Made by a program: the position numbers and the translations under genes
Notes under the pieces: model-generated
Database searches by the model: none
What the model saw: the letters and a program-made list of their open reading frames with translations, nothing else
What the model was told of the DNA's origin: nothing
Origin: a virus
Taxonomy: Duplodnaviria; Heunggongvirae; Uroviricota; Caudoviricetes
DNA length: 15,464 nucleotides
Virus record (IMG/VR): IMGVR_UViG_2671180268_000006
Strand: one strand, 5' to 3'
Shown here: in pieces, positions 83-15,464 of the stretch
Numbering within the stretch: the first letter of the stretch is position 1
How the letters are laid out: the number at the start of each line of letters is the position of its first letter

Positions 83-1330
83 TTAACTGATCGGCATTAC
101 ACCACCGGGACGCGGATTCATATCTTCCAGGTCGCGGCAGTCATTGGAAGAGTAAATTCCCCAGTTGATCCCGGTGGCGTAGGCTTCAAAACGGGACTTC
201 ATATCCCCGCGCAGTAACGCCCCGGCGTTAAATTTGGCGTAATAAACGCCCTGCTTACTTTTTCGTACCAGTCCGGTGTTGATCCGCTGTTCGATGCGGG
301 TCAGATACGGCACCAGTGAATAGTTGATAAATCCCAGCCCCAGCTCTTCGATATTGTTGAAGGTGGCGCGATCGGTGTTCTGCACCATGTGCAACGGCAC
401 CCGGAACAGACGACAGATTTCTTCCAGCTGAAACTTGCGGGTTTCCAGGAACTGACTGTCCTCGGCGTTCAGCGCCATCGACTTCCAGTCCAGCCCCATT
501 TCCAGAATCATCGGGCGGTGAGCATTGCCAAGCCCCGTGTGACACTCCTCAAAATCTTTCTTCAGACGCTCGTAAGCATCCGGCGTGAGCTTTTGTTCCG
601 TACGCAACACACCGGATGTCACCGCACCATTACTAAACAACCTGGCACCGTGCTCCTCGGTTGCCGCTGCCAGTGAAATGGCCTCACGCGCATACGCAAT
701 GGGATTCAGCCCGACAAGTCCATCCAGCGTCAGGGTGCGCACATGCCAGATTTCATTCTGGGTCAACACATCCACGGAACCATCCGGAAACGTCACCTGA
801 TAAACCGGCTGCCACTGGCTGTTCAGCTTCGGTTCCACACAGCCCGGATCTATCGGAAGAAGCTCCACCACTTCTCCCAGTGCCTTTACCTTGTAGGCGT
901 AAAAATTCCCCCGTAGACACAGGCAGACAATAACCAGCTCCCAGAATTCCTGCGGTGTCATGTAGCCATTAGGTTTTGCCGAAACCAACTTATGCAGTCG
1001 TTCATCCACCGCCCGTGTTTTCAGGGTACCGCTGATTTTGTAGAGACTGCAGGGCAGCATACCAACAGACTCTGCCAGCACCCTGACGCAAGAATAGACC
1101 GCCGTCAGGCGCATGGCCCGCTGGCTACTGATCCGCTTTCCGGTATAGGTGTCGTATGACAGCCCGATAGCATCAGCAGTTCTGCTGGCGTGGTCACCGG
1201 CACATCGCTTTTTCGTTGAAATAATCCCGAAAAGAACACTATTTACCTCCGCCGACAGACTGCCGTGTACGGTCGAGATATCGCGCCACCAGCCACGACC
1301 AGAACAGGCACAGCGCCCCGGCAACAACAA
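83..1330 (-). CDS. Phage portal protein (HK97-like family)
   Basis: 415-aa ORF immediately downstream of the large terminase; [14 protein letters not shown]-type motif near the N-terminus and overall portal-like composition. Start is uncertain: the codon at 1330 is TTG, and no ATG/GTG/TTG lies between the end of the overlapping small ORF (1239) and the first internal ATG at 1114. Confidence 0.75.
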
Positions 1331-1421
1331 AACCCGCCGGGGGATAAATCAGCCAGGCACCATACGCCAGCAAAAGCGCACCCAGCACGCCCACCAGAGG
1401 CGCGAGAATCAGCATGATCAT
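1239..1421 (-). CDS. Small predicted membrane protein (two hydrophobic segments), function unknown
   Basis: 60-aa ORF with ATG start preceded by GAGG 5 nt upstream, placed 11 nt after the terminase stop. Product [49 protein letters not shown] is strongly hydrophobic. It overlaps the first 91 nt of the portal ORF in another frame. Confidence 0.45.
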
Positions 1422-1432
1422 AATTACCTCAG

Positions 1433-3166
1433 TTAAAGCGAGCGGATCCCGTAGGACTCAATGTGGTCAGACAGCGTGTCTTCTTTCTCGTACAGCATGG
1501 CTCTGCCAACCGCCATAATCAGCGCAACTGCACCATCGATTTTGTTTTCCGCCTGCTCTTTGACGGGTTTCACCACATCATCGTTACCCGGCATGTTTTT
1601 GCCGACCACGTTGCCGATACACCAGGTCATGATGGGATTGCCGTCATGATGAAAACGTCCCGATTCAATCGCTGCTTCCAGCTCTTTCATCGGATCGGAC
1701 ATATTGGTGAAGTTCTGGACGATAGTGACGGGATTCAGGTCTTCATCAGCAAGGTCATGTGACAACCCGGTCGCCCCGAAGGGGTCGATGGGTGACTCAC
1801 TGACCGGGCTGATTTTGTTCGCCGCTTTGGCCTCCTCGAGGATGTAGCGATAATCCACCTCCGCACCATCGGTAACGGTCAGAACGCCCATTTCCACCCA
1901 TTTCTGAAAGCGTTCGGCTGTCCGTCGATCTTCATTTTTCTCGACGCTGTACACCGTGTCATACGGTACCCAGAAACGCGGGGCCACACTGTAGTAATGC
2001 GTTTTACCGTCAATCTCGCGGGTATAAAGTCGCGCCATGCTGTTCATATCCAGCTTACGCGCCAGGTCAAAGGCCAGAATGCACGGCTGCCCCTCGAACT
2101 GCTCAAGGGTCAGTGATTTATCCTCGCAGCTCTGCCAGCTCACCAAGTTGAAATACGCCGAACGCGCCGACACCCAGATATTGAGGTGTTTTGTTTTAAA
2201 GACGTTTGCCAGACGGGCGTTATTTTTCGCACGCTGCTGCTGACTTAACAAAAATTCGCGATAAACCGACACGCCAATATTTGGATTGGCTTTTTCCAGC
2301 ACCTGCGGGCCGGTCCAGTCGTCACCTTCATCAACGGTATAGATGATCCCGAACAGTTCATCGTTAGGCACCGAGCCGTTGAGCATCTCGATGACTTCCC
2401 GCCGCTTGTCGTAGCACGGCCCCTCAATGTTGTACCCGGCGGTGGTGATGGCCCACATCAGTGGCTGACGTCGCGCCCCCATCCCGGTAAGCATTGTGGT
2501 ATAAAGCGCATCGGTGGCATGCTCGTGATATTCATCAACCACGGCACAGTGGGGTGATGAACCATCACCTGGGTTGCCGATCAGCGGTTCAAACCGCGCG
2601 CCATCCTCCGGACGGTTCATGTTTGAGGCGTTAACCTCAATCCCGAACGCTTCCGTCAGCATGGGTGTGCGTTTACACATCAGTCGCGCCGGGCGAAAGA
2701 CTTCCCACGCCTGTTTCTCTGTCGTGGCACCGGAATACACTTCCGCGCCAAACTCGTTATCACAGGCAAAACAATACAGGGCAACACCGGCAGAGATTGC
2801 TGATTTGCCGTTCTTACGGGGGATTTCGGTGTACACCTCCCGGAAGCGGCGCAACCGGGTGCCTTTATTGACCCAGCCAAACGCACAGCAGATCACAAAT
2901 AGCTGCCACGGCTCCAGCGTGATGGGCATCCGTTTGAATGCCCACTCCCCCTTGGTGTGCGGCAACAGCTGAATAAATTTCGCGGCCCGTTCAGCCAGGT
3001 CCTTGTCGAAGCGGTAACGAAACGACTTACTTTTTTCCGCCATCAGGTCATCAAGATGGCGCTGGCAGGCCTGAATCACAAACTGGCAGGCAACAATCTT
3101 TCCGCGCACGACATCCCGGGCATACTGATTTGCAGCATTTACGTTGGGGTAAGATTTCCGGCTCAT
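1433..3166 (-). CDS. Terminase large subunit
   Basis: 577-aa ORF with ATG start overlapping the small-subunit stop (ATGA). Size and position between small terminase and portal; family assignment is from recognition, not a search. Confidence 0.88.
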
Positions 3167-3657
3167 GATTCGATAATTTTCAGAAACGGGTTAGTGGCTT
3201 TCTTCTGCCCCGCCAGGCCAATCAGACGCTGGCGGCTGCTGGGGTCGAGTCCGAGCATTGCCCCCGTGCTGCTCATCTCGGACTCCTGTTCTTTTTTGGC
3301 GGTCAGCTCCGGATTTTTGACCCTGCCGCCCATTGCACCGGTGATGGTGTTGCCCTGTATGGCAATATTTTTCACGGCACGTCGCCAGAACTCATAGGCC
3401 ACGCACCACCGCTCAAGTACCGCCAGGTCAGTCACGCACAGCAGGCCCTGACCGCAGAGTTCTTTGGTTGTCAGTTGCCACATGATCGTGGCGAGAGGGA
3501 GATCTTCTTCAGCGAACCACTCTGGTGGCTCAACACCTTTGATGGGCGTAAAAACAGGTTCATCTTTGTTCAGGGCTCGCTTGCCGGGGTTTCCGGCCAG
3601 CGCCTTGCGCGCCGTTGGCTTGGGGCGACGCCCGGAACGCCCCGCCGTTCCAGCCAT
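3163..3657 (-). CDS. Terminase small subunit (P27-family-like)
   Basis: Track ORF 3163..3666 begins at GTG with no spacing from AGGAG; the ATG at 3657 sits 8 nt downstream of AGGAG, giving 164 aa. Basic N-terminus ([13 protein letters not shown]) and position directly upstream of terL. Confidence 0.8.
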
Positions 3658-3666
3658 ATGCGGCAC

Positions 3667-3778
3667 TCCTGGTTAAATTTCATTTTTCGCGGGTATAAAA
3701 AAACGATGGGGCGGGCAGTCCGGAAGACGTCAGGTCACAGGGATTTGCCCCGCCCCTCCCTACAAGTGAGAATAATTA
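3667..3778 (-). other. HNH-terS intergenic region with GC-rich inverted repeat; candidate cos site and/or terminator
   Basis: Plus 3708-3718 GGGGCGGGCAG and 3747-3756 GCCCCGCCCC form an imperfect inverted repeat, followed on the minus strand by a T-run (plus 3696-3703). In HK97-like phages cos lies between the HNH gene and terS. Inference only. Confidence 0.3.
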
Positions 3779-4129
3779 TCACCGGATTCGTTCGCGCGCT
3801 GTTTTCGCTTTATGGCAGGGCCAGCACAGACTCTGCAGGTTGCTGTCTGCGTCTGTTCCGCCATGCGCTTTCGGGATGATGTGGTCGACGGTTTTCGCCT
3901 CGCTCACCACACCGACACGCAGACACAACTGACACAGACCTTTATCGCGCTTCAGAATACGGGCACGAATCACCGTCCATTTTGAGCCATAGCCACGCTG
4001 GTGGCGGCTCAGTCCGCGCTGGTGCTGCACCCAGCCTTCACCGCGATGTTTATCGCAGTAACCCGAACTGTCTGTGGTTGTACCTGCACATCCACGCTTA
4101 CGGCAGGCACGTGGGATTAGTGATGGCAT
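3779..4129 (-). CDS. HNH endonuclease (terminase-associated)
   Basis: 116 aa, ATG with GAGG 6 nt upstream. Cys pairs (CRKRGC, CDKH) and DHIIPKAHGG...N...CWPCH motif typical of HNH nucleases; adjacent to terS as in HK97-like packaging modules. Confidence 0.85.
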   Translation of the reverse strand: MPSLIPRACRKRGCAGTTTDSSGYCDKHRGEGWVQHQRGLSRHQRGYGSKWTVIRARILKRDKGLCQLCLRVGVVSEAKTVDHIIPKAHGGTDADSNLQSLCWPCHKAKTARERIR

Positions 4130-4171
4130 AAATACCTCATACCCTGCGAAATGTTTACCACGATAAAAAGG

Positions 4172-4636
4172 CTACTTAATGCACTGAGTGCGGATATACT
4201 CCTGTGCCCCTTCCAGTTGCATCTGCATCGTCATCAGCCGCTCTCTGAGGGTGAAATAATCCCGTTCAGCGGTGTCTGCCAGTCGGGGGCTGGTTGCATT
4301 ATCCACGCCGGAGGCGGTGGTGGCTTCACGCACTGACTGACAGACTGCTTTGATGTGCAACCGACGACGACCAGCGGCAACATCAGCGCGCAGAGTTTCA
4401 TTTTCAGCTTTCGCATCAGCTAACTCCTTCGTGTATTTAGCATCGAGTGCATTAACATCACGCTGTCTCTGCTGCATGTCAGTAATGGTTGCGTTCGCCA
4501 GCTTCAGTTCTCTTGCGTTTTTGTCGCGCTGCTCTTTGTAGGTAATGGCGTTATCACGGTAATGATTAACAGCCCATGACAGGCAGACGATGATGCAGAT
4601 AACCAGAGCGGAGATAATCGCGGTGACTCTGCTCAT
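4172..4636 (-). CDS. Rz: Rz i-spanin
   Basis: Translation [34 protein letters not shown]... closely matches lambda Rz as I recall it; start ATG overlaps the R stop (ATGA). Track ORF starts 4 codons earlier at GTG. Confidence 0.9.
4234..4416 (-). CDS. Rz1: Rz1 o-spanin (lipoprotein) embedded in Rz in the +1 frame
   Basis: 60 aa, [38 protein letters not shown]...; lipobox LVVVGC and proline-rich stretch as in lambda Rz1; lies wholly inside Rz. Confidence 0.85.
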
Positions 4637-5130
4637 TGCTGCCCCCACAAACAGACTTCACGCTCAATCTCACGACGGGTCATCAGCCCTTTCCATTGCT
4701 TACCGCCAGCATATGTCCAGCGACATAGCTGGTCACATGCGCCTTTGATATAGCCCTGGTTTATTTTGCGAAGAAGCGTCGATGTTCTGAAATTGCCAGC
4801 GCCCACGTTGTAAACGAACGAGTAAAGAGCGCCGCGCGTTGTTTCCGGTATATCGACTTTGATGTACGGGTTAATTTGTCTGGCGACAGTGGCAAGGTCT
4901 TTATTCAGGAGGGCTTTGCATTCTGCTTCGGTATACGTTTTACCGAGCATGATGTCTTTTCCGGTGTGTCCGTGACATACAGTCCATACACCAATGATAT
5001 CTTTGTATGGTATGTAGCTGACACCTTCCAGACCATCGTTACCACCTGGGCCAGTGATTAACACAGATGCTATAGCAACAGCCCCACCACCAATAGCAGC
5101 TGCAACAGCCTTGCGTAATGATGGCGACAT
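4633..5130 (-). CDS. R: SAR endolysin (phage-21 R-like lysozyme)
   Basis: 165 aa; N-terminal Gly/Ala-rich weakly hydrophobic SAR-like segment ([20 protein letters not shown]) followed by a lysozyme-like domain. Start overlaps S stop (TAATG). Match to phage 21 R is from memory. Confidence 0.88.
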
Positions 5131-5345
5131 TATTCACCTCTCGCAGCCTTACGCTTGTCTTCTCTTATTTTGAAATACAGATTTGTCAGATAAGTCAGAA
5201 GCCCCAGAAGCAGACTTCCCAGCACACCAATCGCAGCCCACTGTGATGGACTGACCTGATCCAACCACTGCAAAAACCAGTAGCCGGCACTGCCGGCGGA
5301 GGTGCCGTAGGCAATGCCTGTTGATATTTTTTCCATCTGATACAT
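5130..5345 (-). CDS. S: Class II holin / pinholin (phage-21 S-like) with dual-start motif
   Basis: 71 aa, [53 protein letters not shown]...; two in-frame ATGs at codons 1 and 4 (5345 and 5336), matching the S21 antiholin/holin arrangement as I recall it. Confidence 0.88.
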
Positions 5346-5376
5346 ATCCCGCCCCCCGACAGACCTGTGCTATCGG

Positions 5377-5411
5377 AAAGAAAAAAGGCCATCAGCAAAA
5401 CTCTGATGGCC
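5377..5411 (-). terminator. Candidate rho-independent terminator upstream of S
   Basis: Minus-strand hairpin GGCCATCAG(8-nt loop)CTGATGGCC (plus 5387-5411) followed by TTTTTTCTTT (plus A-run 5378-5386). Q-modified polymerase would be expected to read through. Confidence 0.45.
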
Positions 5412-6025
5412 TGAATCACCTTTACCAATATTGTATGAAAAAACACGCACGACTAATTGACAATAATTTTCATTTCCATTAAAAAAGATCGCGTAGCATT
5501 CTTAATTCATGAGGAACTTTACCCGCCAGCAATCTGAGTAGCGAAAGCTGTTCATCCCCAATGTTTTTGCTGGCGGGTCCTTTTTTCTACGGTCCTCCTC
5601 CCCGGAGGGGGGCATTTCATTATTTTTCTAATCGTTACTGGTGAGAAGGCGGAAGAAAAAGCCAGTTCTTCGCCCCTAAATAACAGCATGATTCCAGTCC
5701 ATGCAAAATCTGATTTCCAGCTCACACATACCGAGCACTGTACAAAAAACCGCCAGCCAAGGCAGTTAAGAGTGTGTTCCCGGGGTTTGCTTAGAATATT
5801 TTGTAAGTTGTCCGAAGAGATATTTACAACACCAGAATGATGAATCATCAGTCCCCTGCCAGAGGTTCACTACGTAACCTGACCGACAATGCACCATTCT
5901 GGTGCTGAAAAAAGAGCACTGGAACTGCAACAAAACAACATCACAGAACAGGAGATGGTAAGGAGTCAGACATTCCCACACAATATTGTGTCAGTGCAAA
6001 TAACAACCTTCGTCTCAAATCTCGC

Positions 6026-6100
<75 letters not shown>

Positions 6101-6103
6101 ATA

Positions 6104-6179
<76 letters not shown>

Positions 6180-6181
6180 GC

Positions 6182-6258
6182 TGGCCCACCACCGAGGACT
6201 CGAACCTCGCACCGTCAACTTAGAAGGTTGATGCTCTATCCGGATGAGCTAGTGGTGG
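6182..6258 (-). tRNA. tRNA-Arg (anticodon UCU), atypical C1-G72 acceptor pair
   Basis: TAGCTCA D-arm, anticodon stem TCAAC/GTTGA, loop CTTCTAA, T-arm CGAGG-TTCGAGT-CCTCG, acceptor CCACCAC/GTGGTGG, discriminator G, CCA encoded. The 5' nucleotide is C, not the usual G. Confidence 0.78.
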
Positions 6259-6259
6259 T

Positions 6260-6336
6260 TGGTGGCCCTTGCTGGACTTGAACCAGCGACCTGGCGATTA
6301 TGAGTCGCTCGCTCTGACCAACTGAGCTAAAGGGCC
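6260..6336 (-). tRNA. tRNA with CAU anticodon, ileX-like (tRNA-Ile2 via lysidine, or elongator Met)
   Basis: GGCCCTTTAGCTCAGTTGGTCAGAGCGAGCGACTCATAATCGCCAGGTCGCTGGTTCAAGTCCAGCAAGGGCCACCA; acceptor GGCCCTT/AAGGGCC; anticodon loop CTCATAA. Similarity to E. coli ileX is from memory. Confidence 0.85.
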
Positions 6337-6525
6337 GGAGGCAGAATAATAACCATATGTCATCACATCTGCAAACTCATCTGACCACCAGCACGTTTAA
6401 CGTCCTGTGCCGTTTTTCAGGTATAAAAAAACCCGCTCATCGGCGGGTTTAAGCTGTGTGGCGTAGTAACCACTCTTAACAGGATATTCAACTTTTTACG
6501 ATCGTAAAGTTTTCGGAAAAAATTT

Positions 6526-7095
6526 TTAAAACCGCATCAACCGCTCCACCAGTTGCTCTTTACGGGCAACGATCCACCCGTGTTGCTCCAGATAAAATTT
6601 AAACCGTTCCAGAGTACATACCATCGCATCGGCGGGTACCTTTTCCGTGAACTCAACCTGACCGTGTTTATCGAAGTGGCTCAGTAATGCGCATCCATCA
6701 TTTTCGATAGATGTGTTTTGTGCCGCTGGTGGCTGTTTCTGGTTGAAATAACAGTCTTCCAGTTTTTCGAACACTTCCCACGCCTGATCGGTTTCGAGCA
6801 TTTTGGCGTGACGGGCTGCGCCACGTTCTGTCCAGAGGATGAGGGAGCGAACGTTACGGGCAATTTTCACAGAAACTCTTAAAGAGTTTTCGTTCTTCAA
6901 CTCTCGTAACGCATCACCTTCTATCAGGAAAAAATGTTTACCTTCTATAAACCGTTCTTTGTTTCGATTGAAATTGTTTGTCAAACGCTGGCGCTCTGTT
7001 CCGTACAAATCAGCCAGCAGCTCTGTTGTCATGACAGGAAGATGGTTATGCGTAAGTGACGGGAGTTTTTCAATAGACGTGCGATTCATAGACAT
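6526..7095 (-). CDS. ORF6N-like (Bro-N/antirepressor-like) domain phage protein, function unknown
   Basis: Track ORF 6526..7287, but the first ATG with an upstream AAAGGA is at 7095 (MSMNRTSIEKLPSLTHNHLPVMTTELLADLYGTERQRL...), about 189 aa. Domain name is from recognition of this N-terminal pattern, not a search. Confidence 0.65.
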   Translation of the reverse strand: MSMNRTSIEKLPSLTHNHLPVMTTELLADLYGTERQRLTNNFNRNKERFIEGKHFFLIEGDALRELKNENSLRVSVKIARNVRSLILWTERGAARHAKMLETDQAWEVFEKLEDCYFNQKQPPAAQNTSIENDGCALLSHFDKHGQVEFTEKVPADAMVCTLERFKFYLEQHGWIVARKEQLVERLMRF

Positions 7096-7448
7096 GTCCT
7101 TTCGAATATTTTGATTTACCCCTTTTGAGAGGGTGACCGGGCGCTCAAAACCGTCGAAAGTCGGCGGGCGTATTTCCATTGCTGGTATTGTATTAGCCGC
7201 ACACCCGGTCATAAACCAAGAATTCTGGACACAAAAAAACCACATGGCTATCGGGTGTGGATACCGCTTTCGAGGTGTTTTGAGCACCGCGGGGAAATGT
7301 AAACTGCAAACCTGAAACTGTCAACACCGTCAGGTTCCAATCATCGGGTGGTGAGACGCACAGGGTTGGAACTACCGGGAAACCGACCGGCGAGCTTTTC
7401 AGCTCCCCCATGCGCCCCACCATAATTCAGATGTGCGCGTGCATACGA

Positions 7449-7475
7449 CAATAAAAAACACGCTCGCGGCGTGTG
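7449..7475 (-). terminator. Candidate tR'-like terminator downstream of Q
   Basis: Minus strand CACGC-CGCGA-GCGTG hairpin (plus 7459-7473) followed by TTTTTTATT (plus A-run 7451-7458), about 60-70 nt downstream of the candidate pR'. Confidence 0.45.
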
Positions 7476-7535
7476 TCTGTCGCGGTCTCTATCCGGGGTT
7501 CCAATCCCGACGCCAGATTTTGCTGGCGCGTGAGG

Positions 7536-7565
7536 AATATAGCCCCGGACAATGTGTCTGGTCAA
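7536..7565 (-). promoter_or_regulatory. Candidate late promoter pR' (TTGACC-18 nt-TATATT)
   Basis: On the minus strand just after the Q stop (7570): -35 TTGACC (plus 7560-7565), 18-nt spacer, -10 TATATT (plus 7536-7541). Position matches the lambdoid Q/pR'/tR' arrangement. Confidence 0.4.
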
Positions 7566-7569
7566 GCAC

Positions 7570-7956
7570 CTACATAATTCGTTCTACGTATCTGTCCATC
7601 TCCAGCCGGATATCAAGCATCATCAACATGCCATCAATAACCCCTTCCGCTTTCTGCAGGCGCTTGCCAATACAGGTATCCGAACACCCATGTTTCCGTG
7701 CCAGACTCATAAAAGTCATTCCACCTACGTAATAATCCACCAGCAAATCGTGCAAATCCTGATTTTTCTTGTTCAACCGGGCCATACAGCCACAAATTAT
7801 CATTGCATCATCATCAGAACACTGAGGGCGTGATTTCACTTTCGACGGAATTAACCCTTTAAAACCAGCAGCGATCGACGCCCAGGATACATCTTCATGA
7901 GTGTTTGCAGCCCAAGCCCCCCACCGTTCCATAACCTGCTGAATATCACGCGCCAT
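7570..7956 (-). CDS. Q: Antitermination protein Q (82/21-type)
   Basis: [64 protein letters not shown]... is typical of the non-lambda Q family. Start chosen at ATG 7956 (AGGTGA 6 nt upstream); track ORF begins 7 codons earlier at 7977. Confidence 0.85.
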
Positions 7957-8317
7957 CGTTATCACCTGTGATTTCATAAATCTTCACGCCCAGTCGCCCA
8001 CCAGGAACGAGCTGACCGCGCACAATATTGATTTCATCAAACTGCTCGTCGTCTATGAGTAGTCCGGCATGCGTCAGCGCATCCAGTGGTGCTTTCAGGA
8101 TATTGTCCAGGTCACGACGGCGCTTATCCGGTGGCTCTGCAATAATCTTTATCGCCAGCCTTCCGGACAGGTTTAATTTCAGCCGCTGCTGGCGAACAAT
8201 TAGCGTCACATCACGGCGATAACGCTCACCAACTTTTGATACAAAATATGTGCTGCCACGACGTCGCCAGTAAGTATTCACCGTCGGCGGATAAGGTAAA
8301 ATAAACTCATGGCGCAT
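7946..8317 (-). CDS. rusA: RusA Holliday-junction resolvase
   Basis: 123 aa; [14 protein letters not shown]-terminus and [29 protein letters not shown] acidic catalytic region characteristic of RusA. Start overlaps the stop of the upstream 85-aa ORF. Confidence 0.9.
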
Positions 8318-8693
8318 CAGCGCAGCACCTCCTGCACCATTTTTTCAAACTTTCCAACTTTGGTTTCCAGCTCTGCCACACAATCAACGAGCTCATCCAC
8401 CGCTTTTTGTGCGCGATGTTTCGCCTGCATCAGTTCCCTGAGCGCTGGCACCATATCCCGACGAATGGCATCTTTTGTTACACCTGTTTTTTCCAGTTGT
8501 TCCGCCTGTCGCAACATTTCCTGCGCGTGTTTACGCAATTGTTCAGAGGTAAAAGTCATTGTCTGGTTGTTCAAAAGAAACGCTCCATCTTACTGCTGTC
8601 GGTACGTGTATTGCTGTATCTGCGCGGCTGGGGCTGCCGCATTGGGGTGGAAAGAACCTGTGCGCTTTCCTGGTCCACAGGCAGAAAATGTCC
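8211..8693 (-). repeat. Inverted repeat copy A (helicase 3' end, 85-aa gene, rusA 5' end)
   Basis: Reverse complement is highly similar to 12018..12500. Judged from aligned translations (helicase C-terminus ...SSKMERFF, about 6 substitutions in the 85-aa protein, first 35 RusA residues nearly identical). Exact identity not computed. Confidence 0.8.
8317..8574 (-). CDS. Conserved small phage protein with coiled-coil character, function unknown
   Basis: 85-aa ORF (MNNQTMTFTSEQLRKHAQEMLRQAEQLEKTG...). Track start at 8574 is TTG overlapping the helicase stop; the first ATG is at 8559. A near-identical copy lies at 12137..12394 on the plus strand. Confidence 0.6.
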   Translation of the reverse strand: MNNQTMTFTSEQLRKHAQEMLRQAEQLEKTGVTKDAIRRDMVPALRELMQAKHRAQKAVDELVDCVAELETKVGKFEKMVQEVLR

Positions 8694-9962
8694 GTTATAA
8701 AAACGCCGGTAAATCGTCCCCAGAGAACCGTTACGTTGTTTCGTGATATTAATTTCTGCTATGCCTGTAGCCTGTGTATCCGGGTTGTACACTTCATCCC
8801 TGTAAAGCATCAGAATGATGTCTGCATCCGCCTCTATTTCTCCGGAATTTTTCAGGTCTGAGTTCATGGGACGTTTATTGGGTCTGGACTCCACACCGCG
8901 GGAGAGCTGGCTCAGCGCAATCAACGGAAAACCACCGGATTTTGCCAGGCCTTTAAGCCCCTTTGAGATTTCACCCACGGCAAGGTCATGACGCCCCGTG
9001 GTTCGGGTTTTTATCAGCCCGAGATAATCAACCACCACCAGCGCCGTTTCCGGATGTTTAATCAGATGGTGTTTCGTTGTTGCGCATATCTCATCAATGG
9101 TCAGGTTCGCCTGGTCCACCATCCAGATATTGCGCCCGGTCATCCGCCCCACCCCTTGTGAGAAACGCGCCCAGTCTTCATCTTCAAAGTGAGCCACAGA
9201 TTTCAGGCGTGATACTGGCATCCCTCCAGCCGCAGACACCATACGTTCACCAATCTGGATGTTCGCCATCTCCATGGTGAACAGAAGCACACCATGCCCC
9301 TGCTCAGTCACCTTGTCGATGATGTCCAGCGCAAGTTCGGTTTTCCCCATCGAAGGACGGGCGGCAATGAATACCAGGTCTCCGGGCTCCATACCGCCTG
9401 TTTTTGCGTCCAGTTCATCAATACCGGTCATCAACGTCCTGGATTTCTCCAGCCCCTGATTCCGGCATTCAACACGCTCAACCACTTCCGGAAGCACATC
9501 ATCAATATGTACCGGCTGAATGACGCCCTTTCCTGTCGACAGTGTGACCATCATGTTCTGCGCATCCTTCAGGGCATCTTCAGCTGCTTCACAGGTATGC
9601 GCATCACGTAATTTCTGCAGCGCCTCATTCAGTGTTTTTTCTGCATCGCGCAGTGCGGCATTGCGCCGCAACGCTGCAACATAGTGCTCCAGTGAAGACT
9701 TCACCCAGGTTTTACGCCCGGTATCAGTAATCACCGGGGCAAGTTCCGGCATCTCATTACACAACAGCACGGGGTCAATCACTCCTGAAACACGGGCCTG
9801 TCTGCAGATGCCTGTGTAGATATCCCGATACGCTCGTACAGAAAAAATGTCCGCCGGTAGTGTGATCAGAATATCCATCACTTCATGATCTGCCCCACGC
9901 AGAAAGAATGCGCCAATGACAGCGCCTTCCAGGTCATCATTACGCCAGACTGGTGTTGTCAT
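8571..9962 (-). CDS. Replicative DNA helicase (DnaB-like)
   Basis: Start set at ATG 9962 (GAGGTG 8 nt upstream), 463 aa. Walker A region DLVFIAARPSMGKTELAL and later LSQLSRGVESRPNKRPMNSDL, EADADIILMLYRDEVY match DnaB-family motifs. The track ORF extends into IS2 and those 47 codons are not part of the gene. Confidence 0.85.
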   Translation of the reverse strand: MTTPVWRNDDLEGAVIGAFFLRGADHEVMDILITLPADIFSVRAYRDIYTGICRQARVSGVIDPVLLCNEMPELAPVITDTGRKTWVKSSLEHYVAALRRNAALRDAEKTLNEALQKLRDAHTCEAAEDALKDAQNMMVTLSTGKGVIQPVHIDDVLPEVVERVECRNQGLEKSRTLMTGIDELDAKTGGMEPGDLVFIAARPSMGKTELALDIIDKVTEQGHGVLLFTMEMANIQIGERMVSAAGGMPVSRLKSVAHFEDEDWARFSQGVGRMTGRNIWMVDQANLTIDEICATTKHHLIKHPETALVVVDYLGLIKTRTTGRHDLAVGEISKGLKGLAKSGGFPLIALSQLSRGVESRPNKRPMNSDLKNSGEIEADADIILMLYRDEVYNPDTQATGIAEINITKQRNGSLGTIYRRFYNGHFLPVDQESAQVLSTPMRQPQPRRYSNTRTDSSKMERFF

Positions 9963-10077
9963 GCAGCCACACCTCTGATACAAGAACGGTAGCTGGGCCA
10001 GTTGAACGACAACCAGTTGCGCCCCCCGTCTGTGATCCTGTCGGCAATGCGGGGGCTGATGAACGCTGGATTTGCCC

Positions 10078-10983
10078 CTATATTTCCAGACACCTGTTAT
10101 CACTTAACCCATTACTGGCTTGCTGCCGTAGATATTCCCGTGGCGAGCGATAACCCAGTGCACTATGCGGATGCCATTCGTTATAATGCTCGAACGCCTC
10201 TGCAAGGTTCTTTGCTGCCGTTAACCCGTCTGGTTTGGGCATGACACTGATGTAGTCACGCTTTATCGTTTTCACGAAGCTCTCTGCTATGCCGTTACTC
10301 TCCGGACTCCGCACCGCCGTGCTCTTCGGTTCAAGCCCCAACATCCGGGCAAACTGCCGTGTTTCATTAGCCCGGTAGCATGAACCATTATCCGTCAGCC
10401 ACTCTACTGGAGACGCCGGAAGCTCGTTGCCGAAGCGGCGTTCCACCGCTCCCAGCATGACGTCCTGTACTGTTTCACTGTTGAAGCCGCCCGTAGTGAC
10501 CGCCCAGTGCAGTGCCTCACGGTCACAGCAGTCCAGCGCGAACGTGACTCGCAGTTTTTCTCCGTTATCACAGCGGAACTCGAACCCGTCAGAGCACCAT
10601 CGCTGATTACTTTCTTTCACAGCCACTCTGCCTGTATGTGCCCGTTTCGATGGCGGTACAGCAGGTTTTCGCTCAAGCAACAGCGCATTCTGGCGCATGA
10701 TCCGGTAAACACGTTTGGCATTGATCGCAGGCATACCATCAAGTTCTGCCTGTCTGCGAAGCAGCGCCCATACCCGACGATAACCATACGTGGGCAGCTC
10801 TCCGATAACATGGTGTATACGGAGAAGCACATCCGTATCATCAGTGTGACGACTGTGGCGGCCATCCATCCAGTCATCGGTTCGTCTGAGAATGACGTGC
10901 AACTGCGCACGCGACACCCGGAGACAACGGCTGACTAAGCTTACTCCCCATCCCCGGGCAATAAGGGCGCGTGCGCTATCCAC
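10078..10983 (-). CDS. insD: IS2 transposase OrfB (InsD), normally made as InsCD fusion by -1 frameshift
   Basis: 301-aa ORF with rve/DDE-type integrase core (…WCSDGFEF…, …LTDNGSCY…, …ESNGIAESF…); overlaps orfA over 10941-10983 where the A6G slippery site sits. Confidence 0.85.
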
Positions 10984-11306
10984 TTTTTTGCCCGTCCATA
11001 TTCAACGGCTTCTTTGAGGAGTTCATTTTCCATCGTTTTCTTGCCGAGCAGGCGCTGGAGTTCTTTAATCTGCTTCATGGCGGCAGCAAGTTCAGAGGCA
11101 GGAACAACCTGTTCTCCGGCGGCGACAGCAGTAAGACTTCCTTCCTGGTATTGCTTACGCCAGAGAAATAACTGGCTGGCTGCTACACCATGTTGCCGGG
11201 CAACGAGGGAGACCGTCATCCCCGGTTCAAAGCTCTGCTGAACAATTGCGATCTTTTCCTGTGTGGTACGCCGTCTGCGTTTCTCCGGCCCTAAGACATC
11301 AATCAT
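10941..11306 (-). CDS. insC: IS2 OrfA (InsC)
   Basis: 121 aa from [41 protein letters not shown]... (helix-turn-helix region); track ORF starts 15 codons earlier at a non-ATG codon. Confidence 0.85.
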
Positions 11307-11397
11307 CTGTACTCCAATGACTAGTCTAAAAACTAGTATTAAGACTATCACTTATTTAAGTGATACTGGTTGTCTGGAGATTCAGGGGGCCAGTCTA

Positions 11398-11417
11398 NNN
11401 NNNNNNNNNNNNNNNNN
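11398..11417. other. Assembly gap (20 N)
   Basis: Run of 20 ambiguous bases starting immediately after the IS2 left end; the classic signature of a scaffold join at a repeat. Confidence 0.95.
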
Positions 11418-12140: not shown

Positions 12141-12394
12141 ACAACCAGACAATGACTTTTACCCCTGAACAATTGCGTAAACACGCGCAGGAAATGCTGC
12201 GTCATGCTGAACAACTCGAAAAAACGGGCATAACAAAAGACGCTATCCGTAAAGATATGGTACCCGCGCTTCGGGAACTGATGCAGGCGAAGCATCGCGC
12301 ACAGAAAGCAGTAGATGAGCTGGTGGACTGTGTGGCAGAGCTGGAAACCAGAGTCGGAAAGTTTGAAAAACTGGTGCAGGAGGTGCTGCGCTGA
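12137..12394 (+). CDS. Conserved small phage protein (second copy of the 85-aa coiled-coil protein)
   Basis: 85-aa ORF differing from the 8317..8574 product at about six positions; GGAG 8 nt upstream of the TTG at 12137, first ATG at 12152. Confidence 0.6.
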   Translation: MNNQTMTFTPEQLRKHAQEMLRHAEQLEKTGITKDAIRKDMVPALRELMQAKHRAQKAVDELVDCVAELETRVGKFEKLVQEVLR

Positions 12395-12500
12395 TGCGCC
12401 ATGAGTTTATTTTACCTTATCCGCCGACGGTGAATACTTACTGGCGACGTCGTGACAACACATATTTTGTATCAAAAGCCGGTGAGCGTTATCGCCGGGA
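12394..12500 (+). pseudogene. rusA 5' fragment (about 35 codons) joined to a Q gene
   Basis: [35 protein letters not shown] parallels the RusA N-terminus at 8317-8211, then diverges at an ambiguous base (n at 12501); the catalytic region is absent. Confidence 0.7.
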
Positions 12501-12513
12501 NGCAGGTCAAAAA

Positions 12514-13368
12514 ATGAAACTGGAAGATTTACCGAAATACTACTCCCCAAAATCCCCTTGCCTGACCGATGCATCGGCCTCAACGTCAAAAGATGCGCTG
12601 AGTATCACTGATGTGATGGCCGCGCAGGGCATGACACAGAATCGGGCTGAGATGGGGTTTTCTGCGTTCCTGGGGAAAATGGGCATCAGTATGAATGACA
12701 GGGCGCGGGCAACAGAATTACTGGCAGATTATGCACTCAGTCGGTGCGATCGTGTGGCGGCGTTGAGAAAACTTCCGGCAGAAATAAAACCGGTAGTGAT
12801 GCGCATTATGGCTTCGTACGCTTTTGAGGATTATGCCCGCAGCGCAGCGAGTAAAAAGCAGTGCCCTTGTTGCTATGGGGAAAAATTTATTGAAAGCGTA
12901 GTTTTTACAAACAAGGTCCAGTATCCGGATGGTAAGCCGCCGGTATGGGCAAAGTGTACGAAAGGTGTGTATCCGTCTTACTGGGAAGAATGGAAAAAAG
13001 TCAGGGAGGTGGTAAAAGTTGCCTGTCCGGAGTGTGGCGGAAAGGGTGAGGTTTCCACCGCCTGTAAGGATTGCCGTGGGCGTGGTGTCGCCATTCATCG
13101 TGAAGAGTCGGTAAAACGTGGTATGCCTGTTATCAGAGACTGCCAGCGTTGTGGTGGTCGTGGCTATGAAAGACTACCATCAACGGAGGCATTTAATGCT
13201 ATATGCGAGGTGACAAACCAGATAACACGCGCGTCATGGGAAAAAACAGTTAAGAAATTCTATGATGCGCTGGTGACTCGGTTTGATATTGAAGAAGCAT
13301 GGGCTGAGCGGCAGTTAAAAAAGGTAACTAGGTTGATTTTTCCGGAATCTGTGGTAAATTCGTCATAA
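12514..13368 (+). CDS. Q: Antitermination protein Q, lambda-type, with expanded Cys-rich (CxxCxGxG) region
   Basis: From ATG 12514: MKLEDLPKYYSPKSPCLTDASASTSKDALSITDVMAAQGM... parallels lambda Q (HSPKSP...DVMAAMGM, recalled from memory). Three CxxCxGxG-like motifs (CPECGGKG, CKDCRGRG, CQRCGGRG). 284 aa, longer than lambda Q; no strong SD upstream, so start is tentative. Confidence 0.72.
   Translation: MKLEDLPKYYSPKSPCLTDASASTSKDALSITDVMAAQGMTQNRAEMGFSAFLGKMGISMNDRARATELLADYALSRCDRVAALRKLPAEIKPVVMRIMASYAFEDYARSAASKKQCPCCYGEKFIESVVFTNKVQYPDGKPPVWAKCTKGVYPSYWEEWKKVREVVKVACPECGGKGEVSTACKDCRGRGVAIHREESVKRGMPVIRDCQRCGGRGYERLPSTEAFNAICEVTNQITRASWEKTVKKFYDALVTRFDIEEAWAERQLKKVTRLIFPESVVNSS
13333..13360 (+). 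promoter_or_regulatory. Candidate pR'-like promoter overlapping the Q 3' end (TTGATT-16 nt-TAAATT)
   Basis: -35 TTGATT at 13333-13338, 16-nt spacer, -10 TAAATT at 13355-13360, just before the Q stop (13366-13368). Pattern only. Confidence 0.3.
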
Positions 13369-13407
13369 CTATGGGCGTTTTATGCCTGACGTTAGAAGAG
13401 TTTCTAC

Positions 13408-13434
13408 AACCCGCCGCCGAGCGGGTTTTTTATT
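13408..13434 (+). terminator. Rho-independent terminator downstream of Q (tR'-like)
   Basis: AACCCGC-CGCCGA-GCGGGTT hairpin followed by TTTTTTATT, about 40 nt after the Q stop. Confidence 0.55.
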
Positions 13435-13470
13435 GCGGAATTAATTACGGACCGTTATTATTCTGCTCCC

Positions 13471-13546
13471 GGCCCTTTAGCTCAGTGGTGAGAGCGAGCG
13501 ACTCATAATCGCCAGGTCGCTGGTTCAAATCCAGCAAGGGCCACCA
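13471..13546 (+). tRNA. tRNA with CAU anticodon, ileX/ileZ-like (tRNA-Ile2 or Met)
   Basis: GGCCCTTTAGCTCAGTGGTGAGAGCGAGCGACTCATAATCGCCAGGTCGCTGGTTCAAATCCAGCAAGGGCCACCA; acceptor GGCCCTT/AAGGGCC, anticodon loop CTCATAA, CCA encoded. Differs at a few positions from the 6260..6336 copy. Confidence 0.85.
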
Positions 13547-13646
13547 TCACAAACCGCCATTAGCTTATCAGGAAGAGCAGACGACACGATAACAGGGTTG
13601 TTGGTGCGGGGGCGGGTCCCCGATGGCGGTCCATTATCGGTATTCA

Positions 13647-13723
13647 GCGTTGTTAGCTCAGCCGGACAGAGCAATTGCCTTCTAAGCAATCGGTCACTGG
13701 TTCGAATCCAGTACAGCGCGCCA
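13647..13723 (+). tRNA. tRNA-Arg (anticodon UCU)
   Basis: GCGTTGTTAGCTCAGCCGGACAGAGCAATTGCCTTCTAAGCAATCGGTCACTGGTTCGAATCCAGTACAGCGCGCCA; acceptor GCGTTGT/ACAGCGC (one G-U), anticodon loop CTTCTAA, T-loop GGTTCGAATCC. Confidence 0.85.
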
Positions 13724-13860
13724 TATTCATTCTTCCAGATTCCTTCCGGCAGAGCCTTATACTGAAATATACCTGGCTCAGGATATTGTTGAAAATATTT
13801 TATGTTTGTCAAAAATAAAAGTTCTGTTAAGTATTGATTGAGTGTTTGTTATACGGTCTA

Positions 13861-14187
13861 ATGGTTTTTTCAGCATTAAATATTTATCATTCATATGGTG
13901 TGGGTAGAGTGAATATTGATGAGGCGTCGGGGTGTTTCATCCTTAGGCAGCGTATTGATATAGTCAATGCAGCACGAGCAAAGGCCTTCAGCCGTTTGAC
14001 AGTTTTGTTCTGTACTCCTGATCGTCTTTCGGGAAGAGACGTTATTATTCTGAATAGTGATGCTATACAGAGGGTTTGCGATGAGTTCATGGTTGCTAAT
14101 TCAGAATTATTTGCTCTTGTTCAGGAGTACAACAGAATAGCCAGGACCTGTGGTATGGATGAACTTCGGATTACTCATCTGGGGTAG
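13861..14187 (+). CDS. Hypothetical protein in AT-rich cargo island, function unknown
   Basis: Track ORF 13834..14187 starts at TTG; first ATG at 13861 gives 108 aa (MVFSALNIYHSYGVGRVNIDEASGCFILRQRIDIVNAARAKAFSRL...). No recognisable motif and weak SD; coding status uncertain. Confidence 0.4.
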   Translation: MVFSALNIYHSYGVGRVNIDEASGCFILRQRIDIVNAARAKAFSRLTVLFCTPDRLSGRDVIILNSDAIQRVCDEFMVANSELFALVQEYNRIARTCGMDELRITHLG

Positions 14188-14222
14188 ATACATATCTGGA
14201 TTATCACCTGTTACGGTAAAAA

Positions 14223-14354
14223 GTGATTGCTTACTGTTTTTGTGAATGGCATTGCAGCAGCCGGATAATGTCAGTGCTGGCTGACGGTGTGCTGGTGGCG
14301 GGTGTGGTGGTTGTTGCTTTCCCGTTGCTGAAAAAGAAAACGCCAGACTGTTAG
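14223..14354 (+). CDS. Candidate small hydrophobic peptide (28 aa from ATG 14268, 43 aa from GTG 14223)
   Basis: ATG at 14268: MSVLADGVLVAGVVVVAFPLLKKKTPDC*, a single hydrophobic stretch with a polybasic tail. Weak SD (GCCGGA). Highly speculative. Confidence 0.2.
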   Translation: MIAYCFCEWHCSSRIMSVLADGVLVAGVVVVAFPLLKKKTPDC

Positions 14355-14578
14355 CCGGGTATCAGTTAGCGGGAGAAATTTTTAAATACTTCACAATTCA
14401 GGCGGTTGACTGTTGTCTGGTTTGCGGGGAGTTTGTTAAAAGAAACTGGCATGGTGAATCCCCCTGTGCGGAGGGGCAATCAGCGAGTAGGTATATGGGA
14501 TAATCGCGGATTCAGGTGCTGGTACTGAATTCACCGGGAGGCACCCGGCACCATGCAATGGCACATAGCGCCACTCTC

Positions 14579-14614
14579 CAGCCCCTCTCCGGAGGGGCTG
14601 TTTATATTGATTTT
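14579..14614 (+). terminator. Rho-independent terminator in cargo island
   Basis: CAGCCCCT-CTCCGG-AGGGGCTG hairpin followed by TTTATATTGATTTT on the plus strand; on the minus strand the same hairpin has no T-run after it. Confidence 0.5.
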
Positions 14615-14634
14615 GTCAGATGTGAGTAAACTCC

Positions 14635-14970
14635 TTATGGACTTTGTTGTTTTAGTCCATAAGGACATATTTGCAGAGTGCAACGGTTATTAAAGCATTC
14701 ATTCAATACGTTATCTGTATTTGTAGGGCATTCCTGGCTATTTTTGATTGAATTCCAGAATGTTTTATTGAATGGTACTACGTTGTAAATGGTTACAGGT
14801 AGCACTTTGTTATTGAGCATGATGCCTGTGTGAGTCAGTGTAAATATACTTTCAGGAGGTAAGAAAGCATCCGATTGATACCAGATTATTAATTTTATTT
14901 TACTCCATATGACTGAAAAAGATATTCCGCATGATGGCTGGATAACTGTATCAATCACAATCCACTTCAT
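14635..14970 (-). CDS. Hypothetical low-GC protein (111 aa), function unknown
   Basis: ATG start with AAGGAAAC 5-6 nt upstream; markedly AT-rich with several Cys residues near the C-terminus; no obvious signal peptide. Convergent with the 108-aa ORF. Confidence 0.55.
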
Positions 14971-15230
14971 TTAGTTTCCTTGTTTATGCCTTGCTGGTGA
15001 TGTTCTGAAAAGTATAAATGATATTTTTGAATGTAAACCATAGAGCAGAATTATTTTTCTGATGTTGTTTATTGTTTATTTAAATGCAGGGTGGTTTATA
15101 TCTCGTCTTGTAGTTTATCCATGCATATCTGCTTGATAATCAGGTTTTTATTTAAGGTATGGTTTTGTGTTTTTTCTGTATTACATGTCAGGTATTTTAA
15201 AGAATTATTTTTCAGATGGTGGAAAGAACC

Positions 15231-15404
15231 ATGGCATTTAAACACTATGATGTTGTCAGGGCGGCGCCGCCGTCAGATCTTGCGGAAAAGCTGACACATA
15301 AACTGAAAGAGGGCTGGCAGCCGTTTGGTAGTCCGGTGGCCATAACCCCTTATACCCTGAGGTGTACTGGCAATAGCGGACACTACCATTTGTTCTTTTT
15401 TTAA
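15231..15404 (+). CDS. Small phage protein, function unknown
   Basis: Track ORF 15216..15404; second ATG at 15231 has GGAAAG upstream, giving MAFKHYDVVRAAPPSDLAEKLTHKLKEGWQPFGSPVAITPYTLRCTGNSGHYHLFFF (57 aa). I could not confirm a family name. Confidence 0.45.
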   Translation: MAFKHYDVVRAAPPSDLAEKLTHKLKEGWQPFGSPVAITPYTLRCTGNSGHYHLFFF

Positions 15405-15464
15405 GCAGCCATCTGATGATATTTTTCCCTGAAGGCTGCCGGGGAGATATTCCCCAGACGAGAG

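Follow-up and report, generated by a model that had tools for sequence, protein, structure and literature searches.

The open reading frame at positions 14635-14970 of the minus strand is almost certainly iraL, a moron carried by a prophage and coding for a small anti-adaptor protein. It begins with ATG and comprises 111 codons and a stop, as described in the original prediction for this 15,464-nucleotide stretch of viral DNA (hereafter, the window). Judged from its sequence, the product is predicted to be an RssB anti-adaptor of the IraM/IraL/RssC family. It matches the NCBIfam model NF007393, ‘anti-adapter protein IraM’, a subfamily model that spans both IraM and IraL, with 162 bits over residues 1-110 of 111 (curated cut-off, 121 bits), and it matches phrog_4407 with an E value of 3e-72. 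The gene had been taken for an orphan, which does not hold, since these families exist and 1446 of the 5426 complete E. coli genomes searched contain the coding sequence, always at an identity of 90% or more; 1440 of these genomes match it over at least 80% of its length. As iraL is already known and characterised, its occurrence here is a matter of annotation and no discovery. A current Pfam-A scan gave no match for either IraL or K-12 IraM, even at E <= 10, whereas precomputed Pfam tables assign PF11183.15 (PmrD) to the IraL protein. A weak match to Nairovirus_NSm (E 0.056) and matches to Kti11/Dph3 in the PDB (E 0.24-0.8) were not significant and were dismissed.

The identification draws on comparison with the uropathogenic E. 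coli strain CFT073. The homologue in that strain (NC_004431, 1343465-1343800; WP_000871291.1) is located on a lambdoid prophage and is the strain's only IraM homologue, and it is the gene named iraL by Hryckowian et al. (2014, mBio, PMC4045071), who assigned it to the potB island and gave the amino acid identity of its product to K-12 IraM as 58.9%. The protein encoded in the window is 99% identical to that of CFT073 (110/111 residues), the sole change being L74S (codon TCA here, TTA in CFT073, at 14750). A second, synonymous difference at 14740 brings the identity of the coding sequences to 334/336 nucleotides. Across the surrounding DNA from 14400 to 15360, identity to the CFT073 locus is 99.4%, and values of 99.4-99.7% were obtained for many E. 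coli chromosomes, among them those of CFT073 and 042, in which the gene bears the annotation ‘anti-adapter protein IraM’. The same RefSeq/PGAP label is carried by all of these proteins, and this automatic name conceals a functionally distinct IraL subgroup. In the published work (PMC4045071), the subgroup is delimited by a nucleotide identity of 95% or more to iraL of CFT073 across the coding sequence, with no overlap with iraM matches, and by upstream DNA, promoter included, that is at least 96% identical to that of CFT073 and in which the mapped start site is present. The coding sequence here agrees with CFT073 iraL at 334 of 336 nucleotides, the 245 bp upstream (14971-15215) contain three differences, and the start site is present.

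The gene had also been described as an independently expressed, low-GC accessory gene with a strong ribosome-binding site, and these points are borne out by its composition, its position at a moron site and its own start site at 15003. The coding sequence has a GC content of 34.5% and the upstream region (14971-15215) one of 28.6%, against 50.3% for the whole window and 47% for the stretch from the Q antiterminator gene to DUF3927. In CFT073, 5'-RACE of iraL gave an mRNA with the 5' sequence ACATCACCAGCAAGGCATAAACAAGGAAACCA (PMC4045071), which matches 14972-15003 of the minus strand with one mismatch, where 0 matches would be expected by chance. The transcription start thus falls at 15003, inside the AT-rich region in which a promoter had been predicted, and the prediction is thereby confirmed. 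The resulting 5' leader (14971-15003, minus strand) is 33 nt long. The mRNA reads ACAAGGAAACTAAATG, in which a strong, well-spaced Shine-Dalgarno sequence (AAGGA, 14977-14981, minus strand) precedes the ATG at 14970 by 6 nt.

Read relative to the mapped start, a putative sigma-70-type promoter occupies 15011-15037 of the minus strand. Specifically, TATACT (15016-15011), which ends 7 nt ahead of the start site, would serve as the -10 element and TTTACA (15037-15032) as a -35-like element, separated by a 15-nt spacer. According to the published description, the iraL -10 and -35 elements resemble the sigma-70 consensus, the hexamers themselves being left unspecified (PMC4045071). A generic promoter scan did not flag the TATACT/TTTACA pair because it requires a spacer of 16-18 nt; the two promoters that it did call, at 15078-15050 and 14919-14892, were no more numerous than expected by chance and were set aside. 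The three upstream single-nucleotide differences from CFT073 lie at 14973, 15004 and 15161. The one at 15004 is promoter position -1 and the one at 14973 is located between the Shine-Dalgarno sequence and the ATG, and the expression level could therefore differ from that in CFT073. Farther upstream, the AT-rich intergenic region (15038-15215, ~29% GC) separates iraL from the divergent DUF1737 gene. A fur mutant of CFT073 has raised IraL levels (PMC7157518). Comparison of 14971-15215 with the 19-bp Fur consensus gave at best 11/19 matching positions, no better than in shuffled sequence, and thus no evidence here of direct Fur control.

The AT-rich region also contains a PhoP-box-like direct repeat, TGTTTATTGTTTATTTA (15066-15082, plus strand), which has one mismatch to KGTTTA-N5-KGTTTA and is situated 63-79 nt upstream of the iraL start in inverted orientation. 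We regard this putative element as a lead only, and PhoP control of iraL is not addressed in the IraL paper (PMC4045071). The repeat bears on whether the gene could be IraM sensu stricto, that is, a PhoP/PhoQ-controlled protein induced by Mg2+ starvation that clamps both domains of RssB. The RefSeq/PGAP name ‘anti-adapter protein IraM’ and the subfamily model covering both proteins would also be in keeping with that assignment, which we nevertheless judge improbable. PhoP-box-like matches over the whole window occur at chance level (3 found, 3.4 expected), and comparison by eye of the regions upstream of iraM and iraL revealed no evident similarity. The protein is 61% identical to K-12 IraM by alignment and 99% identical to IraL, and the published BLAST matches of iraL and iraM do not overlap. 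Furthermore, log-phase cells in LB express iraL, and its product binds the RssB N-domain only (PMC4045071). Finally, the gene here lies in a lambdoid Q-lysis context, as opposed to the e14-adjacent site of iraM in K-12, a strain that has iraM and lacks iraL (PMC4045071). Neither the identity of at least 95% to K-12 iraM nor the cryptic prophage e14 context that would mark a K-12-type IraM was found.

K-12 IraM (YcgW/ElbA) is nonetheless clearly related to IraL: the two proteins belong to a common NF007393 family, share a fold consisting of a beta-barrel and a helix, and have in common four cysteines in the C-terminal tail and an ICPYGLK ending, after which IraL carries a four-residue extension, QQSP, that K-12 IraM lacks. 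They differ in that IraM depends on PhoP and Mg2+ starvation, whereas IraL is expressed in log phase from another promoter at another genomic site, and in that IraM binds both RssB domains in the two-hybrid assay, whereas IraL binds the N-domain only.

For IraL, the published work gives direct evidence of function. His-tagged IraL of CFT073 and CBP-tagged RssB co-purify in both directions (PMC4045071). Two-hybrid assays revealed binding of IraL to full-length RssB and, among its domains, to the N-terminal one only, while IraM bound both (PMC4045071). The half-life of RpoS in log phase was ~5 min in the wild type and ~2.5 min in an iraL deletion strain, and single-copy iraL restored it (PMC4045071). 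Deletion of iraL lowered log-phase RpoS in both CFT073 and S. sonnei, the introduction of iraL on its native promoter into K-12 raised it, and the gene was transcribed in mid-log CFT073 (PMC4045071).

Based on these data, we propose the following mechanism for the protein encoded here. By analogy with its 99%-identical CFT073 counterpart, iraL would be transcribed in exponentially growing cells from a sigma-70-type promoter of its own, and its product would bind RssB, the adaptor of ClpXP, at the N-terminal receiver domain. With RssB blocked, RpoS (sigma-S) would be longer-lived and would accumulate in log phase. The ability of this L74S allele to bind RssB and to stabilise RpoS is presumed from the CFT073 protein; the substitution adjoins the position of L75, a residue of IraM that contacts the C-domain of RssB. 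The S. sonnei strain used in the deletion work presumably carried the L74S allele as well. Since iraL is antisense to late transcription, its expression in the lysogen is expected to be independent of phage induction, and the gene would represent a lysogenic conversion of host stress physiology. As already published, iraL is a prophage gene that rewires a core host regulator, so that growing cells of uropathogenic E. coli and of Shigella have more RpoS.

A structural basis for RssB binding is suggested by the crystal structure of IraM(1-78) with RssB (8TWD), in which the beta-barrel domain occupies the receiver domain at its alpha4-beta5-alpha5 face and keeps RpoS away from that face (PMC10844676). 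The protein from the window matches chain A of this entry (IraM) at E 6e-31 with phmmer. An AF2 model based on a 42-sequence family alignment had a mean pLDDT of 85.2 and superposed on 8twd_A with a TM score of 0.90 and an rmsd of 1.2 A; this run supersedes an earlier one on a shallow 16-sequence alignment (pLDDT 59.9, Foldseek TM to 8twd of 0.46). The model contains a PmrD-like antiparallel beta-barrel and a flanking helix within residues 1-78, and it also superposed on PmrD 4hn7 (TM 0.75, rmsd 2.5 A, with 13-14% identity in the structural alignment). Using the interface residues listed in PMC10844676, we found that all five IraM contacts to the RssB N-domain in cluster I (I4, I6, W22, K26 and I42) are identical in the IraL examined here. 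The contacts to the C-domain and linker are partly substituted relative to IraM (T13S, L75I, H63N and I64V, with L74S beside position 75). This pattern, in which the N-domain contacts are kept and the C-domain and linker contacts are substituted, would fit the published N-domain-only binding of IraL. By homology to the IraM-RssB complex, the PmrD-like barrel of residues 1-78 is thus predicted to dock on the alpha4-beta5-alpha5 face of RssB and to exclude RpoS.

These results also bear on the function that the original prediction had suggested, an immunity or defence factor. Homology and structure prediction, proposed there among the means of checking it, point to a known family and fold (NF007393, 8TWD), and the immunity or defence reading has no support. 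That the gene serves in phage immunity, in superinfection exclusion or in defence against phages seems to us very improbable. The moron position, low GC content, own promoter and lysogen expression would all suit such a factor, and raised RpoS could in principle alter phage susceptibility indirectly. However, a search of PADLOC-DB returned 0 families at E <= 1, the protein shares its fold with IraM and PmrD, connectors that bind response regulators, and its 99%-identical CFT073 counterpart has been shown to have a specific biochemical function of another kind. It is harder still to credit that the protein is a PmrD-like connector acting on another response regulator and not on RssB, for example by protecting phospho-PmrA: the family profile does reach PmrD (2jso/4hn7) over the whole N-domain at E 0.014, the model fits 4hn7 with a TM score of 0.75 and precomputed Pfam gives PF11183 PmrD, but identity to PmrD in the structural alignment is just 13-14%, the residues by which IraM contacts the RssB N-domain are all conserved, direct IraL-RssB binding has been published (PMC4045071), and PmrD has no four-cysteine tail.

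Comparison with further known proteins places the RssB anti-adaptor IraL more precisely. PmrD (4HN7, 2JSO) resembles it in being small, in sharing the N-domain fold and in binding the receiver domain of a response regulator; it differs in being chromosomal and PhoP-activated, in protecting phospho-PmrA and in lacking the four-cysteine tail, whereas IraL is prophage-borne and targets RssB. Salmonella RssC and the homologues called ‘IraM’ in Citrobacter, Enterobacter, Klebsiella and Phytobacter fall into the same profile family, with a length of ~108-125 aa, the conserved W30 and W72 and the four-cysteine tail; their identity to IraL is 20-41%, and their cysteines usually follow an x10-x5-x4 spacing. 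The rssC gene has been described as specific to Salmonella, with 49% identity to iraL by ClustalW (PMC4045071). IraD and IraP lead to the same outcome as IraL, namely inhibition of RssB and stabilisation of RpoS, and are analogues, not homologues; the anti-adaptors of K-12 have no sequence identity with one another and bind RssB differently (PMC4045071).

The C-terminal part of the protein had been singled out as cysteine-rich, and C81, C92, C97 and C102 are indeed present. The codons of this tail (residues 81-111) occupy 14638-14730 of the minus strand, and the tail carries the four-cysteine motif C81-x10-C92-x4-C97-x4-C102-P103, whose cysteines are invariant or nearly so in the family. We examined the conservation of these residues in 44 full-length representatives of clusters at 50% identity, drawn from several genera of Enterobacteriaceae. 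C81, C97 and W72 are present in 44/44 representatives and C92, C102 and P103 in 43/44; no other positions in the set are as well conserved as the four tail cysteines, P103 and W72. Conservation in the remainder of the tail averages 0.33, versus 0.45 for the N-domain. The spacing most common in the family is C-x10-C-x5-C-x4-CP, and IraL and IraM have x10-x4-x4. A four-cysteine tail with a CP(Y/F)G ending is proposed here, and not taken from published criteria, as a mark of the family, and IraL in the window has both.

In the 42-sequence AF2 model, the pLDDT of the tail is 57 at residues 81-90 and 70-76 at residues 91-110, and the latter does not appear to be a disorder-like score. For crystallography of IraM, residues 79-107 were removed, as the full-length protein was proteolysed and insoluble, and the tail was called less conserved and flexible (PMC10844676). 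Cysteines or zinc are mentioned neither in that structural paper (PMC10844676) nor in the other anti-adaptor literature searched on IraM and RssC. We tentatively suggest that the tail might be a Cys4 metal-binding (probably zinc) or redox module that controls the stability, solubility or activity of the anti-adaptor, although we consider this less likely than the contrary. If true, it would couple RpoS stabilisation to metal or thiol-redox status, and the tail might explain the reported instability and insolubility of full-length proteins. The invariance of the tail cysteines is possibly new, and it may be the sole element of this locus that would repay more work.

The local genomic context of iraL is that of a lambdoid prophage remnant. 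On the plus strand, a Q antiterminator gene (PF03589, 12514-13368) is followed by tRNA-Met(CAT) and tRNA-Arg(TCT) (13471-13723), an ORF assigned to PHROG-2873 (13834-14187) and a DUF3927 gene (14223-14354); CFT073 has Ile-Arg-Arg at the site equivalent to this tRNA cluster. Beyond iraL, the 5' part of a divergent DUF1737 gene (15231-15360, plus strand; PF08410, E 1.5e-15) is cut at 15361 by IS600. The remaining 15361-15464 are the end of this IS3-family element, with 100% identity to sequences annotated ‘IS3-like element IS600 family transposase’. The identity to CFT073 stops at 15360, and the DUF1737 gene is also annotated in that strain. IS600 enters the DUF1737 gene 130 bp past its start and so takes away the lysis and structural genes of the prophage that carries iraL, and the same junction occurs in Shigella-type chromosomes. 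In both CFT073 and phage vB_EcoS-640R1, a holin-lysozyme-Rz cassette and a terminase come after DUF1737, and the phage has the same Q-tRNA-iraL-DUF1737-holin order. It follows that iraL sits antisense to late transcription at the classic moron site, with the Q/tRNA region on one side and the lysis genes on the other. CFT073 IraL corresponds to the gene here in its promoter, leader, start site, flanking DUF3927 and DUF1737 genes, antisense orientation and location on a lambdoid prophage island. The two loci differ by L74 (S here), the one synonymous change and the three upstream SNPs, and DUF1737 is not cut by IS600 in CFT073, whereas here the insertion truncates it and severs the rest of the prophage.

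The gene had been predicted to run opposite to the late operon, which applies in part. It is indeed convergent with, and opposite to, the plus-strand genes of its own remnant; the late operon contained in the window, however, does not belong to the iraL prophage. The window lacks the late structural operon of that prophage, which is severed by IS600 at 15361, and the only structural and lysis genes of the window (83-5345, minus strand) are part of a different prophage fragment. Given that its host prophage is defective and IS-ridden, iraL could be heading for decay, although it is still intact.

Between the convergent DUF3927 and iraL genes, the terminator scan, RNA folding and an inverted repeat (I2) identified a GC-rich hairpin followed by a T-run (14579-14600, plus strand), which looks like a terminator for DUF3927. 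The same hairpin also forms within the iraL 3' UTR upon folding; the minus-strand RNA of 14560-14680 folds with -46.5 kcal/mol (z = -6.7). A further inverted repeat (I1; 14632-14665, minus strand), a perfect 12-bp repeat with a 10-nt loop, spans the last codons and the stop of iraL, and its 3' arm in the mRNA sense encodes the S-P-stop of the QQSP extension. This repeat may be a 3' stem that stabilises the mRNA or a weak terminator. Beyond the hairpin, downstream of iraL, lies a short ORF (14436-14564, minus strand) that corresponds to an incomplete pseudogene in CFT073 and to a 70-aa hypothetical protein in vB_EcoS-640R1.

To place the allele, we examined its distribution. The exact 111-aa sequence is present on at least 999 contigs, under the names ‘IraM [Shigella sonnei]’ and ‘MULTISPECIES [Shigella]’, and on complete chromosomes it adjoins IS elements and IpaH-type (LRR_TTSS/NEL) genes. 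In Shigella-type chromosomes an IS3-family transposase is found at the same place, and 12502-15464 is 100% identical to one chromosome with IpaH-type genes. The allele is thus the Shigella-type iraL, the one common in Shigella, and the window probably stems from a Shigella-type source. Disruption of the reading frame, absence from relatives or lack of expression would have argued against a functional accessory gene; instead, the gene is intact at 98-99% identity in the sampled genomes and is transcribed in mid-log CFT073. Four phage records match most of the 1065-bp region 14400-15464. More widely, an HMM search of 1.84 billion cluster representatives returned 97 matches at E <= 0.001, of which ~45 were full-length (108-125 aa), and the named full-length relatives are from Salmonella, Citrobacter, Enterobacter, Klebsiella and Phytobacter. 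Within the collection of complete E. coli genomes, none covers at least 80% of the window.

The remainder of the window is largely taken up by the second prophage fragment (83-10103, minus strand), which encodes an HK97-type portal, TerL, a P27-family TerS, HNH, an Rz/lysozyme/P21-holin group, four tRNAs, ORF6N, Q, RusA and a DnaB-type helicase. The tRNA cluster of this fragment, Gly-Thr-Arg-Met, is located at 6026-6336 and its Q antiterminator gene (PF06530) at 7570-7977, both on the minus strand. The window therefore holds two tRNA clusters, each downstream of a different type of Q (PF06530 versus PF03589). The helicase ORF overlaps at its 5' end with an IS3-family element (10078-11351). Together with an IstB fragment and 20 consecutive N, this element links the two prophage fragments. 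The run of N, at 11398-11417, and a single N at 12501 point to scaffolded or masked sequence, and the fragments on either side of 11398-11417 may not be physically contiguous. On the plus strand at 12394-13368, a 324-aa ORF unites the first 35 codons of RusA in frame with the full Q antiterminator. This fusion results from the lack here of 252 bp that are present in Shigella-type chromosomes (L005, 12470-12721); the RusA-Q junction sits exactly on the N at 12501, and it may be an assembly artefact and no real deletion.
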